Below, one piece after another: positions 2,066 to 19,523 of a stretch of DNA of 39,041 bases. Each line of letters begins with the position of its first letter. Position 1 is the first letter of the stretch. The position numbers and the translations under genes were made by a program. The DNA is taken from IMG/VR virus record IMGVR_UViG_3300032303_001112, positions 1-39,041 of that record, one strand, 5' to 3'. Below the pieces are notes generated by a model. That model had not been told where the DNA came from and searched no databases. It worked only from the letters and a program-made list of their open reading frames with translations. The stretch is from a virus (Duplodnaviria > Caudoviricetes).

Positions 2066-2722
2066 TTAGAGTGGGTGGGCGAGGGGGGTGGTGGGCGGGG
2101 GCGTGTCGGGGGTTGGCGGGTTCGGCTTGGGATATTTCCTCGGCCTCCCAAGTCGTTGAGGTTTAACATCCTTCACAACCTCCGCAGAAATCTCCACGGC
2201 AGGAACGGCAACCCTTCCCTCTTGTGATGGTGTCCCTCCTTCAGTATAATTAGTGGGGACTAGAGAAGAAGGGGTGGTGGTGTCGGGTAATTGTTGGGGA
2301 GCTAATTGATTACCCAAGAGAGAACCCCAAGCCCCCATCAGCTTGCCTATCGTGTCATCGCCTAGGGCGAGAATTTGCATACTCGAGCCTTGCCCACTAG
2401 GTACATAAGCAGGGGCAAATTCTTCCTTTGCCCTTCTCTCTAACAACCATTGGGAGGGCTTCTCTGAAATCTTGGCGTGACGCTCTATATTGCTAACTTG
2501 GCTACGGACAAAAAAAGAGTGTGCCTCTTCCATCATTGGGGCGAACTCGGGGTGAAGCCCTGCCCACTGCTTACTTGTCCCATACGGAACTCCACAAAGG
2601 GGCGAAGCATACCGCAACGGAAGCCCCCGCTTAATCTGATTACATATCTGACGAGCCTTTGCGATTGACCACCGAGCAGGCCTCCCCACCTTTCCGCTAA
2701 CCTTGTGAGGCTCTATGTTCAC
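2066..2722 (-). CDS. terS: Terminase small subunit (putative)
   Basis: VGRP N-terminal motif, HTH-like segment, WLLERR motif, directly upstream of terL; Pro-rich tail. Confidence 0.8.
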   Translation of the reverse strand: MNIEPHKVSGKVGRPARWSIAKARQICNQIKRGLPLRYASPLCGVPYGTSKQWAGLHPEFAPMMEEAHSFFVRSQVSNIERHAKISEKPSQWLLERRAKEEFAPAYVPSGQGSSMQILALGDDTIGKLMGAWGSLLGNQLAPQQLPDTTTPSSLVPTNYTEGGTPSQEGRVAVPAVEISAEVVKDVKPQRLGRPRKYPKPNPPTPDTPPPTTPLAHPL

Positions 2723-2729
2723 TCACCCT

Positions 2730-2780
2730 TCCCGTATTGCTAAAATAAAACTTGTCAATCCTTCCGCCGGAGTTACGGGA
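2730..2780. promoter_or_regulatory. Symmetric divergent promoter-like dyad TCCCGTA-N15-TTGTCAA-N15-TACGGGA
   Basis: Dyad centred at 2755; both strands read TTG(A/T)CA-N16-TACGGG; the leftward copy ends 8 nt before the terS GTG. Confidence 0.55.
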
Positions 2781-2785
2781 GCAAA

Positions 2786-3010
2786 AAGAGTAGGGAGAAC
2801 ACAAAGCCCGAAATGGTATCCGATCCTCGCAAGAAAGACCGAAAAGGGGCGAGCGTAGGTAGAACGGAGCTAGCCTCACGCCCTGCTAGCTTAATAATTG
2901 GGAGCGATCCCAGCGATTCTCACGCCTACCTCAACGGCATTGGTAATAATGGATACCGCACCTAGAGAAAACCGCCCAATCCCTCGAGGATGGGCGAACT
3001 ATGCCCACGC
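2786..3010 (+). ncRNA. Candidate structured non-coding RNA, family unknown
   Basis: Nested stems 2815-21/2951-57, 2851-64/2917-32, 2868-74/2885-91, 2899-2903/2908-12 (GCGA loop), 2973-82/2988-96; no credible ORF. Confidence 0.55.
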
Positions 3011-3133
3011 AAACCCTCCCCCCTTTATTATTATCATATATTAAAAAAACCTAACCCCCTCCCGTTAGGTTGCATCGTGTAAGCCCTGCCCTCCTCTCTC
3101 TCTTCCCCTCATCCTCCGTGGCTCGCTGATCGT

Positions 3134-3196
3134 GGAAGCGTAAGCCTTGCCGTTGATTGCTTCCGCTTTCTTTTTTTTTCTTATTTTTTTCTTTTC
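3134..3196 (+). terminator. Possible intrinsic terminator
   Basis: GGAAGCG...TGCTTCC stem followed by about 30 nt T-rich tract; loop longer than typical. Confidence 0.45.
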
Positions 3197-3363
3197 AGTT
3201 TGTGTAAGAAGCCTCCGTTTATTCTTTTTATTTGATAAGCCCCCGAAAATAAATCCCCTCTCTCCCATTAGCTTAACTAATCCTAAAAGCCCTTTTCCCC
3301 TCTGAGGCCTCCCGCGATTGCCCCTGCGTTACATAAGCCTAACTAATTACCGCTTTGAGAGTA

Positions 3364-3394
3364 TTGACGGAAGCGGTTGCAAAGTGTAACAAGC
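3364..3394 (+). promoter_or_regulatory. Early promoter TTGACG-N17-TAACAA overlapped by GTGTAACAAGC motif
   Basis: Near-consensus -35; ATG at 3401 lies 8 nt past the -10 with no SD (leaderless-like). Confidence 0.55.
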
Positions 3395-3400
3395 ATAAAT

Positions 3401-3814
3401 ATGAACAACACAAAAGCACAAGCAATCGAAGCCAAGAAAGCCAAGATGAAACAACTCGCGGAACAATTCGCGAAGATGACGGAAGCCGAGAGAGTGGAAC
3501 TATCCAACCAACTCGGAAGCCTCCGAACCATCGAAGGCCGACCTCTCTCCTTCAAAAACTCCGCCCTCCTTTACTTCCAGAAGAAAGGGGTATCAATCGT
3601 CGGAGGCTTTCAACAATGGAAGAAGGCTGGACGAATCGTGAGGAAGGGAGAGAAAGCCCTAGCGATCTTTTGCCCCGCCTCCCGCAAGACTGAAGAGGGA
3701 CAACCCGCCGAGGATTCTCTCTTCTTCTTTACTGGAAGCGTTTTCGATATTAGCCAAACCGAACCCCTTACCCCATCAGAAACCCTAACCCGTTCCCTTG
3801 TGGGGAATGTGTAA
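3401..3814 (+). CDS. ArdC-like ssDNA-binding domain protein (N-terminal domain only)
   Basis: SFKNSALLYFQ...GGFQQWKKAGRIVRKGEKALAIFCP...VFDISQTE signature. Confidence 0.85.
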   Translation: MNNTKAQAIEAKKAKMKQLAEQFAKMTEAERVELSNQLGSLRTIEGRPLSFKNSALLYFQKKGVSIVGGFQQWKKAGRIVRKGEKALAIFCPASRKTEEGQPAEDSLFFFTGSVFDISQTEPLTPSETLTRSLVGNV

Positions 3815-4089: not shown

Positions 4090-4608
4090 ATGAACACCAC
4101 AACCGAAACAACCCCCCGTATCTATGTCGGGACTTACGAGAAGTACAACAACGGAAGCATAAAGGGAGCTTGGCTCGACCTTGAAGGCCTAGACAAGGAT
4201 TCCTTCTATGACGCTTGCAAAGAACTCCACAAAGACGAGGCCGACCCCGAGTATATGTTCCAAGACTTCGAGGGTTTCCCCCGCCGATTCTATGGGGAAT
4301 CATCCCTCGAGGATGGCTTATGGGCTTGGCTCGAGCTTGACGAGGAAGAACGGGAACTCCTCGAAGTAGCTTCAGAGGCCGTGGACTCTGAGGACATAGA
4401 CGATGCTCGAGAGAAGTTTATGGGAAAATATGACTCAGAAAAAGATTGGGCTGAGAACTACCTCGAGGATACGGGAGAACTTAACGAGATACCCGAACGC
4501 CTCCGGTATTACTTCGACTACGAGGCCTATGCCCGAGATGCCCGACTTAATGGGGATATATGTTTCCACGAACATAACGGCGAAACTTGGGTTTTCTCTA
4601 ACCACTAA
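4090..4608 (+). CDS. ardA: Antirestriction protein ArdA (DNA mimic)
   Basis: RIYVGTYEKYNNGSIKGAWLDL, DPEYMFQDFEGFP, YYFDYEAYARD; highly acidic. Confidence 0.95.
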   Translation: MNTTTETTPRIYVGTYEKYNNGSIKGAWLDLEGLDKDSFYDACKELHKDEADPEYMFQDFEGFPRRFYGESSLEDGLWAWLELDEEERELLEVASEAVDSEDIDDAREKFMGKYDSEKDWAENYLEDTGELNEIPERLRYYFDYEAYARDARLNGDICFHEHNGETWVFSNH

Positions 4609-11554: not shown

Positions 11555-11634
11555 GGCCCACCCCATATCGTATCGACAACGACTATTAGTATCATGATGA
11601 ACGCGACAATCTGGATGGCCTCACCCCCGCTCAT
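11551..11634 (-). CDS. 27-aa membrane peptide
   Basis: MSGGEAIQIVAFIMILIVVVDTIWGGP; ATGA overlaps with both neighbours. Confidence 0.55.
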   Translation of the reverse strand: MSGGEAIQIVAFIMILIVVVDTIWGGP

Positions 11635-12674
11635 GCCGAACATAATTGCATCGCCTTTCTGACAACTCTTTCCGGCTCTATCCCAGCCAAGACGTTGCAC
11701 ATTTCACTTCTGTTACACGGACCACCCTGAGGCCACTTCAGCCCACCAATTCCATGATGATTACAAGGAGAGCAATCTCCTCCGGCTTGAATGAAGAAGT
11801 TCCTTGGATTCCCTAGGGTTGCTCTCTTGGTATAATGAAACGATCCGTAGAGTCCTAATGTAGCTACATCCAAAGCGCATCCAAAGTGGATAAACGCTGA
11901 GTCCGGAGCTATGATTAGATCGCAGGATTCGAGCAAAGCCACCGACTCTTCGAGTGTCCATTTCTCCATTGAACCATTGAGAACCAAATCCGAGTGACCA
12001 ATAACACTCGTAGCCTCCGGCTCGTCGAACAACACCACCTCGACTCCTTTCTCTATCAAACCAGCTATAACCTCGGACATATAGGGATAGCTCCTGATCT
12101 TCGATGAGGCCTTCATTTGAATACCGACTCTCAGCTTGGCCCTCTTGGGATAACGAATAAGCATATCCCCGACCAACGCCTTATCGTTCTGATACTTCAG
12201 CCTAAGAGGAAGATCATAGAATCCGGCCTTAGCCCCAAAGACATGAACCGCATGAAGATCGTGATCCTCTTCAACTGAGTTCGTTAGATTCAAAACTGCA
12301 TCCCGCTTTAATAATTCAGAATGCGGTGCTGGATAGGACAAGTGGCTACATAAAGCATGAACCCCCAACTCGCTTCTGTTGGAACAACAAACTTCTAACT
12401 TAACCTCCGGCCACTCAGCCTGTATCGCCTCTATAAGCGGAGTGATTAAAAGAATATCTCCTATGCCCCCCGCCCTCAGAATGGTCAGAGTCTTTCCGTT
12501 ATAGTCGGCATTGCGATCATACGCAGGCAACTCGCATCCCTCGACGGAGGCAAGTCCATCCAGACGCATAAGCAAAGCCCCAGCCGCCCTTGGCTCCACC
12601 ACATAACTAACCCCAGCCTTCAAGGTTGTAGTCTTATCGTAGGGAATATCAATTTCAGGAGTTAAAATTCTCAT
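11631..12674 (-). CDS. Glycosyltransferase, GT9 (ADP-heptose:LPS heptosyltransferase)-like
   Basis: ILRAGGIGDILLITP and CDLIIAPDSAFIHFGCALDVATLGLYG; Cys-rich C-terminus. Confidence 0.85.
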   Translation of the reverse strand: MRILTPEIDIPYDKTTTLKAGVSYVVEPRAAGALLMRLDGLASVEGCELPAYDRNADYNGKTLTILRAGGIGDILLITPLIEAIQAEWPEVKLEVCCSNRSELGVHALCSHLSYPAPHSELLKRDAVLNLTNSVEEDHDLHAVHVFGAKAGFYDLPLRLKYQNDKALVGDMLIRYPKRAKLRVGIQMKASSKIRSYPYMSEVIAGLIEKGVEVVLFDEPEATSVIGHSDLVLNGSMEKWTLEESVALLESCDLIIAPDSAFIHFGCALDVATLGLYGSFHYTKRATLGNPRNFFIQAGGDCSPCNHHGIGGLKWPQGGPCNRSEMCNVLAGIEPERVVRKAMQLCSA

Positions 12675-16285: not shown

Positions 16286-16324
16286 TTGCACACTCACCTA
16301 CGCACCATGTAATCTTCTTACATG
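16286..16324 (+). promoter_or_regulatory. Promoter TTGCAC-N18-TAATCT with overlapping palindrome CATGTAA-N5-TTACATG
   Basis: -10 ends 6 nt before ATG 16322 (leaderless-like); inverted repeat 16306-16324. Confidence 0.55.
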
Positions 16325-16564
16325 ACACAACCCATAAAACATCGGGCTCCCTCAAAGAGAGAGGGGGGCCTTTCAGACACCATCGGATTTAGAGCCCCGA
16401 AAGAAACTCGAGAAAAGCTCGATAGGATTTCTAAGCTACTAAATTATTCTTGTAATCTCGTAGTTATTGAGGCTGTCAATGCAGTCCATGACATGATCTT
16501 TACAGGACCGACACACACTCCGGCAATCGTCCTGCGAGGACGAGCATTAAAAGACATCGTATAA
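16322..16564 (+). CDS. Ribbon-helix-helix regulator, putative repressor
   Basis: TIGFRAPKETREKLDRIS...SCNLVVIEAV fits the Arc/CopG pattern. Confidence 0.7.
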   Translation: MTQPIKHRAPSKREGGLSDTIGFRAPKETREKLDRISKLLNYSCNLVVIEAVNAVHDMIFTGPTHTPAIVLRGRALKDIV

Positions 16565-17593
16565 ATGGCCTCTCTCTTCCGGAGGAATGGCTTTTGGCAT
16601 CTTGGATGGCAACAGGATGGCAAATGGAAGCAAGCAAGTACAGGGTTTCGGATTGAAGGCAAAGCCCCTCCGATTGAAGTTCACGAACTCCGCCTTCGCA
16701 AAGAGAAGGAGATAGCCTGCATCGCAGTTGGGTTGGAATACGTCAAGCCCATCACAATCAAAGAGGCGATTGCGGAATGGACTGAGATTGACCGAAAGAC
16801 CGCTAGGCATGGCACATTTGCAAACCACCAATCCACCGTCCCCAAGAGATTAGCTCGATTCAATGACAAGCTAGTGGCCCACTTCAACGAAGCAGACGCT
16901 CAGGAGATAGTGGCCTCGCTCAATTCTGAACCCACATCCTACTCCACGAAGAGATCCATGTTTGCCTCATTCTCTAGCTTCTGGAAATTCGTTATGGCAA
17001 AGGGATATTCCAAAGCTCAGTTCTTCTCCTACTCCATGATGAAGAAGATAAGCGGAGATCGTAACCCCCGCAAAGAGCGCAGAGGGTTGACCTACGAAGA
17101 AGAAGAGAAAATCTTCTCCCACCTATCCGGATGGGGGCTGACCTGTGCCAAGATTGCGATCTGGACGGGGGCTAGGATCTCGGAAGCCGTAAGGGTAAGA
17201 ATGGAGGACGTAGATTTTATGCAAGGCGAGATACGCTTTAGAGAGAAGAAGCAAGGGGATAGGCCTATTGTAAAGTCAATGCACCCCCACCTTACCGATT
17301 TCCTAAAGAACCTCTCCGTTGATGATTATCCGCCTGAGAATGCTAGCGAGTGTGCCTTGCGGGATCGCTTCCGGCAGGCAGTGGCTAAGGCAGGAGTCCC
17401 AAACGCTACCTTCCATTGGCTCCGGCACACGTTGGCCTCAAGATTGTTTGAGGAGGGGATTGGGGAGAGGGATGCGGCGGCGATTTTAGGCCATACGCAG
17501 GCAGTCCATAAAGTGTATGCTCATGCCTCCCGCGAGAGGCTAAAATCGAAGTTGTCTAAAATTAGGAACGTCGGGTTTTCGTCGGGTAACTAA
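16565..17593 (+). CDS. int: Tyrosine integrase
   Basis: TGARISE, HWLRHT, LGH, catalytic Y in VYAH. Confidence 0.93.
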   Translation: MASLFRRNGFWHLGWQQDGKWKQASTGFRIEGKAPPIEVHELRLRKEKEIACIAVGLEYVKPITIKEAIAEWTEIDRKTARHGTFANHQSTVPKRLARFNDKLVAHFNEADAQEIVASLNSEPTSYSTKRSMFASFSSFWKFVMAKGYSKAQFFSYSMMKKISGDRNPRKERRGLTYEEEEKIFSHLSGWGLTCAKIAIWTGARISEAVRVRMEDVDFMQGEIRFREKKQGDRPIVKSMHPHLTDFLKNLSVDDYPPENASECALRDRFRQAVAKAGVPNATFHWLRHTLASRLFEEGIGERDAAAILGHTQAVHKVYAHASRERLKSKLSKIRNVGFSSGN

Positions 17594-17780
17594 CGAAAAA
17601 CGAGCTATTTTATGCAACCATTGGCTACACAAGGCAACCGTTAATGAGCAATTTTCTCTTAAAATTATATAGCCAAGTGTGTAACAGTGACATCATCATC
17701 CTTACGCTCAATTAGACTCAATGTTTGAAACTGCTTATTTATCAACTACTTAGGTTAAAGTTGTCGGGTTTATGTCGGGT
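17570..17780. other. attP region with paired arm-type repeats
   Basis: GTCGGGT at 17570, 17581, 17763, 17774 (two pairs, 11-bp period) flanking an AT-rich spacer between convergent int and endolysin. Confidence 0.75.
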
Positions 17781-18514
17781 CAACTAGCGAATAATTCACC
17801 CTCTTGCTTACGTCGAAGTTGAACTCCTTTGAGTGGTGAACGAAGTGCCATCTGTTTAATAAGACCTGCAATCGGACGAGTGTTTCCACGCTCAAGATTA
17901 TCATAAACCTCCTTCATTTCAGATCGAGTTGATCCTATCAAAGAAGTTCCTCGGTTAAAGGTTAGGCTTACGAGTGCAGTCTTTTGCCTATCATTTAGAG
18001 CGTCAAAGTTCGGCCAAAGTTTGTAAGCCTTCATCAGCCAAGTAGGGAGGGTGACTTTAGTGAATTGAGCTAGGGCAACCTCATAAGAGATAGAAACACC
18101 CACAACCCCACGATGCTTCCCAGCCGCTTCCCTACCCTTTAGTCCCGATACGGAGGCTAGCTTCTCAGCATCCTCCTCTGAGATATATCCCTTCCAATCG
18201 GCCTTAATCTGATCCGGAGTGTAGTAGCCTAGGTCGTAGCCAACTCCAACGGTTAGGCCGGAAGCATCATTCACGGGATTCAAAGGGGTAGTTAAATATC
18301 GGTTGTAGTACCTAGGCCCACCAGTTTCCCATTCAACGATCTTCTGGATCAGATCACGGGGAGGCAACCATCCTCGGTAGGTAGTAGTCGTAGCGCGAAC
18401 TGCCTCCGGCTTTGGGGCCTCCTTCGGCTTCGCCTCATCCTCCGCCCTTTTCTGTTCTACGATTTGCTTAAACCAACCCATGCCTCTCGCTAGTCCATCT
18501 GTTACTGATCTCAT
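17780..18514 (-). CDS. Endolysin, pesticin/lysozyme-like muramidase
   Basis: WETGG..YY...SGLTVGVGYDLG, ALVSLTFNRG, RRKQEGELF; GGAGG RBS. Confidence 0.85.
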   Translation of the reverse strand: MRSVTDGLARGMGWFKQIVEQKRAEDEAKPKEAPKPEAVRATTTTYRGWLPPRDLIQKIVEWETGGPRYYNRYLTTPLNPVNDASGLTVGVGYDLGYYTPDQIKADWKGYISEEDAEKLASVSGLKGREAAGKHRGVVGVSISYEVALAQFTKVTLPTWLMKAYKLWPNFDALNDRQKTALVSLTFNRGTSLIGSTRSEMKEVYDNLERGNTRPIAGLIKQMALRSPLKGVQLRRKQEGELFAS

Positions 18515-19146
18515 TTTAGTCCTCCGTTGTTTGGTCCTGTTGCCCACACCACCAATGAATATCGAGTCCCCCACCACACGGGGCAGGCTTTATGAAGCAG
18601 ATAGCAAGGGAACAACGTGGCCGATCCCTGCTCTCTAGCCCTTTTCTTTTTGTGCCATTCGTGAGCCTTGATCTTCAGCGATCCGCCCAAATAGGAGTCC
18701 GGCTTACAAAGGTTGATAACCATCGCAACCTTCCGCACATCTCCGGCGGCTCCGTTGTCAAAGTGCCAATTATAGAACTGAAACTTCTTATAGATTGTAA
18801 ATTGAAAGGTGTGGGAAGGAGACAAGGAGAACCCATAGACCTTGCCTCCAATTACGCTTAGGACTTTATCCAAGCGGTCAAAGACCCACTCGGTAGAACC
18901 CGTCCTAGCAACCCACGAAATACTGCAATTCCGGCCAAGAACTTTCTTGTCGCTCCCGCCCTTCGTACCAAGGCCCTTCGTAACATCCCCTGCCAACCCA
19001 AGCTCAATTATCTCTGAGCATTCAGCCGGAACAAAGACATTCGGAATCGTGATCGCATCACATACAGTTGTCTTGGGCTTCTCCACCACTTCCTGCGGAA
19101 ACTCAAAATTCGTAACGATTGTCCCGCCGGAGGTTGTCTTTGTCAT
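18511..19146 (-). CDS. 2OG-Fe(II) oxygenase (PKHD/prolyl-hydroxylase type)
   Basis: YNWHFD (HxD), YLGGSL, LLHK, GTRYSLVVW. Confidence 0.9.
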   Translation of the reverse strand: MTKTTSGGTIVTNFEFPQEVVEKPKTTVCDAITIPNVFVPAECSEIIELGLAGDVTKGLGTKGGSDKKVLGRNCSISWVARTGSTEWVFDRLDKVLSVIGGKVYGFSLSPSHTFQFTIYKKFQFYNWHFDNGAAGDVRKVAMVINLCKPDSYLGGSLKIKAHEWHKKKRAREQGSATLFPCYLLHKACPVWWGTRYSLVVWATGPNNGGLK

Positions 19147-19523
19147 ATTGTCCCAAGAATTTTCCAATCAGATCCCGTCCTGATATGGCACTTCTTATTT
19201 TTGCAAAGACACTCATTTGTCTTGAAAACCCAATAAAGATCATCCTCTAACCCCACGCAAACGATCAGGTCGCAAGAGGACTTTGTGTACTTACGCTTTT
19301 TAAGGTTCCCGTTGGAAGTCATGAACTCGTACCTATCTATTTTCGGCTGTCTGCGAGTCGAGCATTTGACCTGAATGCGAATGAACTTCTCGTTCTTTTC
19401 GGCAACAAGATCATATCCGTTGCAATCCTCTAGTGGGGCCAGAACGGAATAGCCGGATTGCAGTAGAGCAGTCGTGACCCTCGCCACACCTACTGATCCG
19501 ATTTGACGGTTTGATAGTTTCAA
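19143..19523 (-). CDS. PD-(D/E)XK endonuclease (homing-type)
   Basis: GYSVLAP...YDLVAE...RIQVK. Confidence 0.8.
   Translation of the reverse strand: MKLSNRQIGSVGVARVTTALLQSGYSVLAPLEDCNGYDLVAEKNEKFIRIQVKCSTRRQPKIDRYEFMTSNGNLKKRKYTKSSCDLIVCVGLEDDLYWVFKTNECLCKNKKCHIRTGSDWKILGTI

Follow-up and report, generated by a model that had tools for sequence, protein, structure and literature searches.

Between the terminase genes and the first early genes of the phage considered here there is a gap (positions 2723–3400), and the question is whether it harbours a gene of its own. The window, that is, the whole stretch of DNA analysed, is a complete virus record of 39,041 bases with terminal repeats. It contains terminase, head, tail-fibre, helicase and integrase genes, and the presence of the integrase means that the phage is temperate. 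On one side of the gap lies the gene for the terminase small subunit, terS (2066–2722, minus strand, assigned with PHROGs), with the large subunit next to it (617–2017). On the other side are the first early genes, encoding a protein with an ArdC N-terminal domain (3401–3814) and ArdA (4090–4608), which start a plus-strand gene cluster that is patchily distributed among the relatives. A sequence-only reading of the locus had proposed a structured, non-coding RNA on the plus strand of this gap, and the motifs it quoted are all found where it placed them, with CCTAC at 2925–29.

Among cultured phages, those of Akkermansia have the TerL most similar to that of the window, and at 31–34% this gives a weak hint to the host. 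A TerL search of a genome collection yielded a single product, a 1,140-base contig in a Flavobacteriia MAG with a 99% identical TerL; this contig is probably mis-binned and hence no evidence for the host. Elsewhere in the window there is a small ribbon-helix-helix-like ORF (16322–16564, recognised by eye) directly ahead of the integrase, and a gap after the integrase (17560–17785) is flanked by repeated GTCGGGT words and resembles an attachment site. The phage also carries a family 9 glycosyltransferase (11631–12674) and a 2OG-Fe(II) oxygenase (18511–19167), the latter without a counterpart in G003, an element-less relative discussed below.

Folding against shuffled controls, the check named beforehand by the sequence-only reading, failed on the single sequence. 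Namely, the region 2786–3010 folded alone has a z score of −1.28 on the plus strand, with 24 of 200 shuffles equally good, and of −0.32 on the minus strand. Rfam 15 gives no match in the window at the gathering threshold, the best sub-threshold overlap being DUF805b (14.6 bits versus the 35.6 needed, E 0.36), and ARAGORN finds no tRNA or tmRNA genes in the genome. Since neither single-sequence folding nor these searches gave anything, the case rests on the relatives.

The relatives were gathered by TerL and TerS searches, and their loci belong to one group of uncultured temperate phages. A profile search places the element in 34 of 56 TerS loci (L132–L187). Two of the 22 element-less loci were dropped, one being a distant protein and the other having only 34 bases upstream, which leaves 34 of 54 informative loci. 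Some contigs are present in both collections, and with the duplicates removed there are 22 distinct copies, 49–99% identical, which sort into a few related subtypes and all sit on the strand opposite to terS, immediately upstream of it. In the genome of the window the element is single-copy. A model of it, R1, retrieves all 22 copies and gives no match in 15 element-less loci of the family or in three distant loci. Beyond the phage group, nhmmer matched only the known clade among the 110 and 79 stretches returned by two pattern scans of viral sequences, and R1 applied to 100 other loci returned just short P1 matches forced by the search pattern. R1 was also run on element-less relatives and on the surroundings of terL in two Akkermansia phages, neither of which yielded a match, and blastn against 50,697 phage records gave no match to the element.

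Over the 22 copies, the mean folding z score is −1.97 for the plus strand (11 of 22 below −2) and −0.96 for the minus strand (2 of 22 below −2); the three long copies, like the window's own copy, fold no better than shuffles. A 50-pair structure drawn from the alignment has 82.5% of its cells paired and two-sided changes at 28 of the 50 pairs, compared to 30–48% paired when it is slid along the alignment. It is important to note that this structure was drawn from the same sequences on which it was scored and is thus biased in its own favour. RNAalifold, run without the drawn structure as input, yet on the model-fitted alignment, gives 26 pairs, 17 of them compensatory, and recovers P2, P4, P5 and part of P8. 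A permutation test that takes the tree into account was applied to 25,651 column pairs, and four of its top five are proposed base pairs: 2830–2849 (E 0.01), 2902–2909 (0.01), 2900–2911 (0.11) and 2871–2888 (0.23). The fifth, 2859–2991 (E 0.11), is no base pair, and an E of 0.01 is reached by two pairs only. Covariation among the terS-upstream homologues, which had been named as a further check, is thus found for several stems.

From the alignments and R1, the structured RNA gene is placed at 2786–3006 on the plus strand, with ends predicted from the promoter spacing and the limits of conservation. Its first stem, P1 (2793–2809), is short, with three pairs in 22/22 copies, and closes an 11-nt conserved loop, nRRACAYwAAG; in other copies the stem is longer and covaries. 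The 5′ strand of P1 can alternatively pair end to end with the 3′ tail in 20–22 of the 22 copies, and the 5′ GGG has the neighbouring strand or this tail as alternative partners. P2 (2819–2860) consists of a core stem, 2826–30/2849–53, with five pairs in 22/22 copies, four of them with two-sided changes, and a lower stem beyond a C-C mismatch. The core is followed by a conserved 8-nt bulge, AWGAMAGA (2831–38), and above it by a 2-bp stem with a GAANA loop (2841–45; GAANA in 19 copies, GAAA in 3). The sequence-only reading missed this covarying core stem, which is excluded by a long helix, 2851–64/2917–32, in the window's own minimum free energy structure. That helix had been proposed as part of the fold (GAG-GTAGG/CCTAC-CTC), but it is paired in only 41% of cells and is not conserved, and its AGAA/TTCT part reaches 50%. 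The outer GGTATCC/GGATACC pairing, at 59% and 82% paired, could not be confirmed either.

The central part is a predicted three-way junction (2865–2915) composed of P3 (2865–66/2914–15), which is weak (73% paired, no two-sided change), P4, the conserved linker UAAUAAU (2892–98) and P5. Here the two hairpins seen earlier hold up well. P4 (2868–91, AGCTAGC/GCTAGCT), which carries a CGCCC loop, and P5 (2899–2912, TGGGA-GCGA-TCCCA) both covary, with 97% and 91% of cells paired, respectively, and the P5 loop is of GNRA type in 19/22 copies, in four different spellings. As to the further GNRA loops that had been suggested, GAAA at 2841 is a true apical loop, whereas GCAA at 2829 forms no loop in the conserved fold. 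The word CTCACGCC does occur twice, but the second copy (2919) is not conserved, and only CGCCC in the hairpin loop is kept.

The 3′ half of the element is poorly resolved. P6 (2924–38, 56% paired) and P7 (2942–57, 83% paired) are tentative hairpins, poorly aligned and absent from the RNAalifold consensus; they are visible copy by copy, and P7 is swapped for a longer domain in 3/22 copies. P8 (2973–96, 90% paired) contains an invariant GGGC and is followed by a tail, the region extending to 3006. For the GGGC, either the P8 strand or the P4 loop is a possible partner, and the pairing with the P4 loop can form at four positions in 21–22 of the 22 copies, never with two-sided variation. The long variant, with its enlarged P7 region, occurs in three separate TerS lineages. 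In its representatives L137, L140 and L165 the inserted domain, inspected by eye, repeats the P1-loop word GAGRACAYA, which might give this variant two instances of a single binding motif.

The GNRA and GAANA loop patterns point to an RNA of the plus strand, and the G-U pairs, the four GNRA spellings in one loop and the better folding of the plus strand argue for RNA rather than DNA. A protein product does not explain the region. No ORF is conserved, the window's 50-codon ORF (2813–2965) having its ATG in 9/22 copies, with stops or frame shifts elsewhere. We consider it very likely that the element is a conserved, covarying, non-coding RNA gene. The earlier proposal of a structured plus-strand phage RNA outside Rfam is in this respect borne out by the covarying stems, the strand preference in folding and the lack of an Rfam match.

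Ahead of the element lies a promoter-like dyad (2731–2779), with the palindrome TTGTCAA (2752–58) and TACGGG 16 nt away on each side. It points leftward into terS and rightward into the element, and beyond these two the genome has no further instance of the full pattern. The palindrome, TTG(N)CAA, is 30 bases from the terS start. The rightward TA box is present in 22/22 element-bearing copies versus 0/20 element-less loci, and the dyad noted by the sequence-only reading is confirmed. The leftward TA box, in contrast, is found in 22/22 element-bearing copies (spacing of 15–17 allowed) and in 19/20 element-less loci (16 bases). We infer that transcription starts at the dyad in both directions, the rightward half being the promoter of the element. 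The spacing of 16 nt is common to the terS and element sites and is 17 nt at the early site discussed below. Because the element's promoter-like site is of the terS class and mirrors that of terS, its expression would be late, in line with the link to late expression suggested before. The promoter-like boxes (2731–2779 and 3364–3392) are −10-like and begin with TA but do not end in the T of the sigma-70 consensus, so that promoter function and late timing are only predicted; the missing T may reflect a property of the host's polymerase.

Some 160 nt beyond the element's end, after a C-rich trailer, there is a terminator-like hairpin with a double T-tract (3135–3197, plus strand). A hairpin with a T-run is found 150–265 nt downstream in 19/20 copies with enough flank, and a terminator scan of the window did not call the one at 3135–3197. 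The double T-tract is equally present in 20/20 element-less loci. The T-rich element described earlier thus indeed lies downstream, but it is not specific to the RNA and may have another job. A separate promoter-like site, TTGACG-17 nt-TAACAA (3364–3392, plus strand), precedes the early genes. Its exact pattern is found 300–400 nt past the element in 16/20 copies examined, and similar sites are seen by eye in element-less loci. In L143 and other element-less loci, a different rightward site, TTGACA-17-TAC, lies ca 60–100 bases upstream of terS and directly precedes the double T-tract.

Two repeated words were also observed in this part of the genome. GTGTAA(C/G)AA occurs mostly in the early region (+3202, +3384, +3809, +4609, +5686, −9612 and −14427), one copy sitting within the early promoter-like site, and is possibly an operator or promoter word. 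AAGCC occurs seven times on the plus strand of 2721–3400 and its complement not at all, compared to 89 and 72 in the whole genome. AAGCC-like repeats also run through the gaps of element-less loci, and they are possibly a packaging or terminase-binding site.

Contigs from RNA libraries cover 2796–2976 and 2814–2960 (two libraries labelled lake water, from two studies), and the same studies contain capsid-region contigs of relatives. These contigs carry no strand, ends or level and could originate from DNA. The flanks 2464–2745 and 3028–3779 are uncovered in the RNA libraries and the two contigs end differently, so the transcript is not delimited. They lend weak support to transcription of the element.

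The element was also compared with known RNA families. In eight other copies, Rfam gives no match on the element at E up to 1, and there is no match to any Rfam ribozyme, to C4 or another antisense RNA family, or to the Rfam CRISPR-repeat families, the last bearing on a Racr-type mimic. A descriptor of the HDV-like fold (nested double pseudoknot, catalytic C first in J4/2) matches 0/22 copies with the usual L3. With any L3 it gives scattered matches with no common placement; an invariant C follows P8, and the other helices are missing. Kinship with RNase P RNA, an idea that arose from the order of motifs seen by eye, was rejected as well: RF00010 gives no matches at E up to 10 (controls detected in 11/14 cases), R1 scores at most 2.9 bits on E. 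coli rnpB, and the summed alignment has p 0.45 against dinucleotide shuffles. A laxer test gave z of ca 4 in 2/22 copies and was not upheld. GOLLD and ROOL fail on size, family model and tRNA neighbourhood. For a put-type antiterminator a double hairpin of ca 65 nt, close to where an early transcript begins, would be expected, and the element has ca 220 nt and up to eight stems. A phi29-type pRNA should be essential and universal, and the element is absent from G003 and from 20/54 informative terS loci. Likenesses to tmRNA tag ends, boxA/boxB, c-di-GMP riboswitch words and tRNA D-loops found no support. We found no description of the element in the literature searched. PMC10690425, a catalogue of viral RNA candidates, gives lengths of 29–151 nt, and part of the element may already be among these candidates. 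Taken jointly, we have high confidence that the element represents a previously uncatalogued family of structured phage RNA, new, stand-alone and likely late-expressed, within a narrow known range.

The distribution of the element bears on its function. The relative G003 is 98% complete and shares TerL (82%), portal (78%) and capsid (83%) with the window, yet it is without the element. On a TerS tree of 40 rows the absence requires eight changes, seven of which are forced by well-supported branches. The anti-restriction genes beside the element are equally patchy, and no protein gene of the window clearly co-occurs with it in the eight genomes compared, three of them partial. Judged by this pattern, the element, like the adjoining early genes, is accessory and can be exchanged as a module, and an essential role in packaging is excluded by the distribution. 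The earlier suggestion of a packaging-associated RNA does not survive, in its essential form, the existence of near-complete relatives that have the same terminase, portal and capsid without the element; for a replication primer, also suggested, nothing was found in favour.

The mechanism that we tentatively favour, with a probability of roughly 0.35, is that of a stand-alone folded RNA of ca 220 nt, made late, which would bind a protein in trans, most likely a host factor involved in defence or in RNA binding for which it would serve as decoy or ligand. The dyad would be a late promoter firing both ways, transcripts would terminate near 3170, at the T-tract, and lose their C-rich trailer by trimming. 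The GNRA-type loops would hold the fold compact, and those conserved segments that remain unpaired, namely the P1 loop, the P2 bulge and UAAUAAU, would present a surface that binds the host protein. The decoy step is proposed from the distribution and by analogy, and catalysis or ligand binding fit the invariant unpaired bases equally. The phage would benefit in some host strains only, which could explain why versions with and without the element coexist and are exchanged by recombination. Reported precedents for phage RNA decoys are Racr (PMC10651486) and pseudo-ToxI (PMC3475682), which like the proposed role are accessory phage RNAs directed against host defence. They mimic a known short host RNA, whereas the element, a long single-copy sequence, is unlike any known RNA.

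We regard it as rather unlikely that the RNA, made along with the late genes, assists virion assembly in a dispensable role, by binding to the prohead, portal or terminase, or that it is packaged into the virion and delivered to the next host upon injection. The mirrored terS promoter-like site, the predicted three-way junction and the complementary P4 loop and GGGC, which could link monomers, would all suit such a role, but the element is absent from G003 and is scattered over the TerS tree. Phi29 prohead RNA (PMC5066667) resembles the element in size, in the predicted three-way junction and possibly in having complementary segments. That pRNA, however, is essential and known only from phi29-like phages, while the element is optional and its phage has a two-subunit terminase. 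The loops of the pRNA interlock by complementarity; in the element the P4 loop could pair with the invariant GGGC, which is also predicted in a stem, and no loop-loop covariation is seen, nor is there an Rfam match. A cis-acting antiterminator or leader switch of the HK022 put or Bacillus EAR type, taking the polymerase through the T-tract into the early genes, is unlikely. According to PMC8632103, put works in such a manner, and put and the B. subtilis EAR are, like the element, structured RNAs located after a phage promoter and before a terminator-like site and early genes; the several competing GCCC/GGGC pairings are also switch-like. On the other hand, put is only a third as long as the element, the promoter-like site of the element is of the terS class, and element-less relatives retain the same layout. 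Decoy and antitermination were both among the earlier suggestions, and the decoy or ligand is preferred because the element has the look of a self-contained unit and a separate promoter-like site precedes the genes that follow.

The many invariant unpaired bases and the junction with its conserved linker could also be those of a new class of catalytic RNA, self-cleaving or processing, and phage intergenic regions are known to hold ribozymes (PMC10879173). With the Rfam ribozyme families, the HDV-like descriptor and RNase P RNA all negative, we find this quite improbable. The immunity RNAs P4 CI and P1 C4 act as base-pairing regulators. That the element does so too, its loops binding phage or host messages, would be compatible with a temperate phage and with the conserved loops, and the window contains a 7-nt complement of the P1 loop near 3200. 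This complement is, however, lost in divergent copies, no C4 or other antisense family matches, and control could instead be exerted by a protein, for which the ribbon-helix-helix-like ORF ahead of the integrase is a candidate, so we hold such a regulator to be a little more improbable still. Finally, there might be no functional RNA in the gap at all; it could contain a site that acts as DNA, in packaging or as an origin, or the pairing could be due to chance among related sequences. The single-sequence z score of only −1.28 would agree with this, as would the AAGCC word, which is repeated throughout the gap and includes invariant P1 letters. The compensatory changes, the GNRA spellings, the strand bias and the dedicated promoter half speak against it, and such a site would be dispensable in close relatives; we judge it very improbable.

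Two further comparisons place the element among phage RNAs. GOLLD and ROOL are, like it, phage-borne, multi-stem orphan RNAs; according to 10.1101/2024.12.08.627333, one strain can do without ROOL, and the level of GOLLD increases during lysis. They measure 650–800 nt or more, whereas the element has a far simpler fold and a genome without tRNA genes. As far as can be judged, the element behaves like these two or like the decoy RNAs, yet it belongs to none of them. The cabRNA, as reported in PMC10686824, is likewise a structured phage RNA tied to terminase genes. It arises from within these genes and triggers host immunity, while the element is a separate gene on the opposite strand, under its own selection.

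It is doubtful, although conceivable, that the element defines a new functional class, namely a compact folded RNA, transcribed off the back of the late promoter and traded among phages as a counter-defence cassette, which during assembly would put a defence protein of the host out of action, or be virion-borne, or be a ribozyme of new fold. Few phage RNAs of this size have a covarying multi-stem fold, and most are without a known job. The close relatives with and without the element constitute a natural experiment, in which the promoter half is present only together with the element, and at ca 220 nt the RNA is convenient to transcribe, to probe, to assay for catalysis and to use as bait. A protein partner, if there is one, would add an RNA-based route of host takeover or counter-defence, and self-cleavage, if it occurs, would add a ribozyme class.
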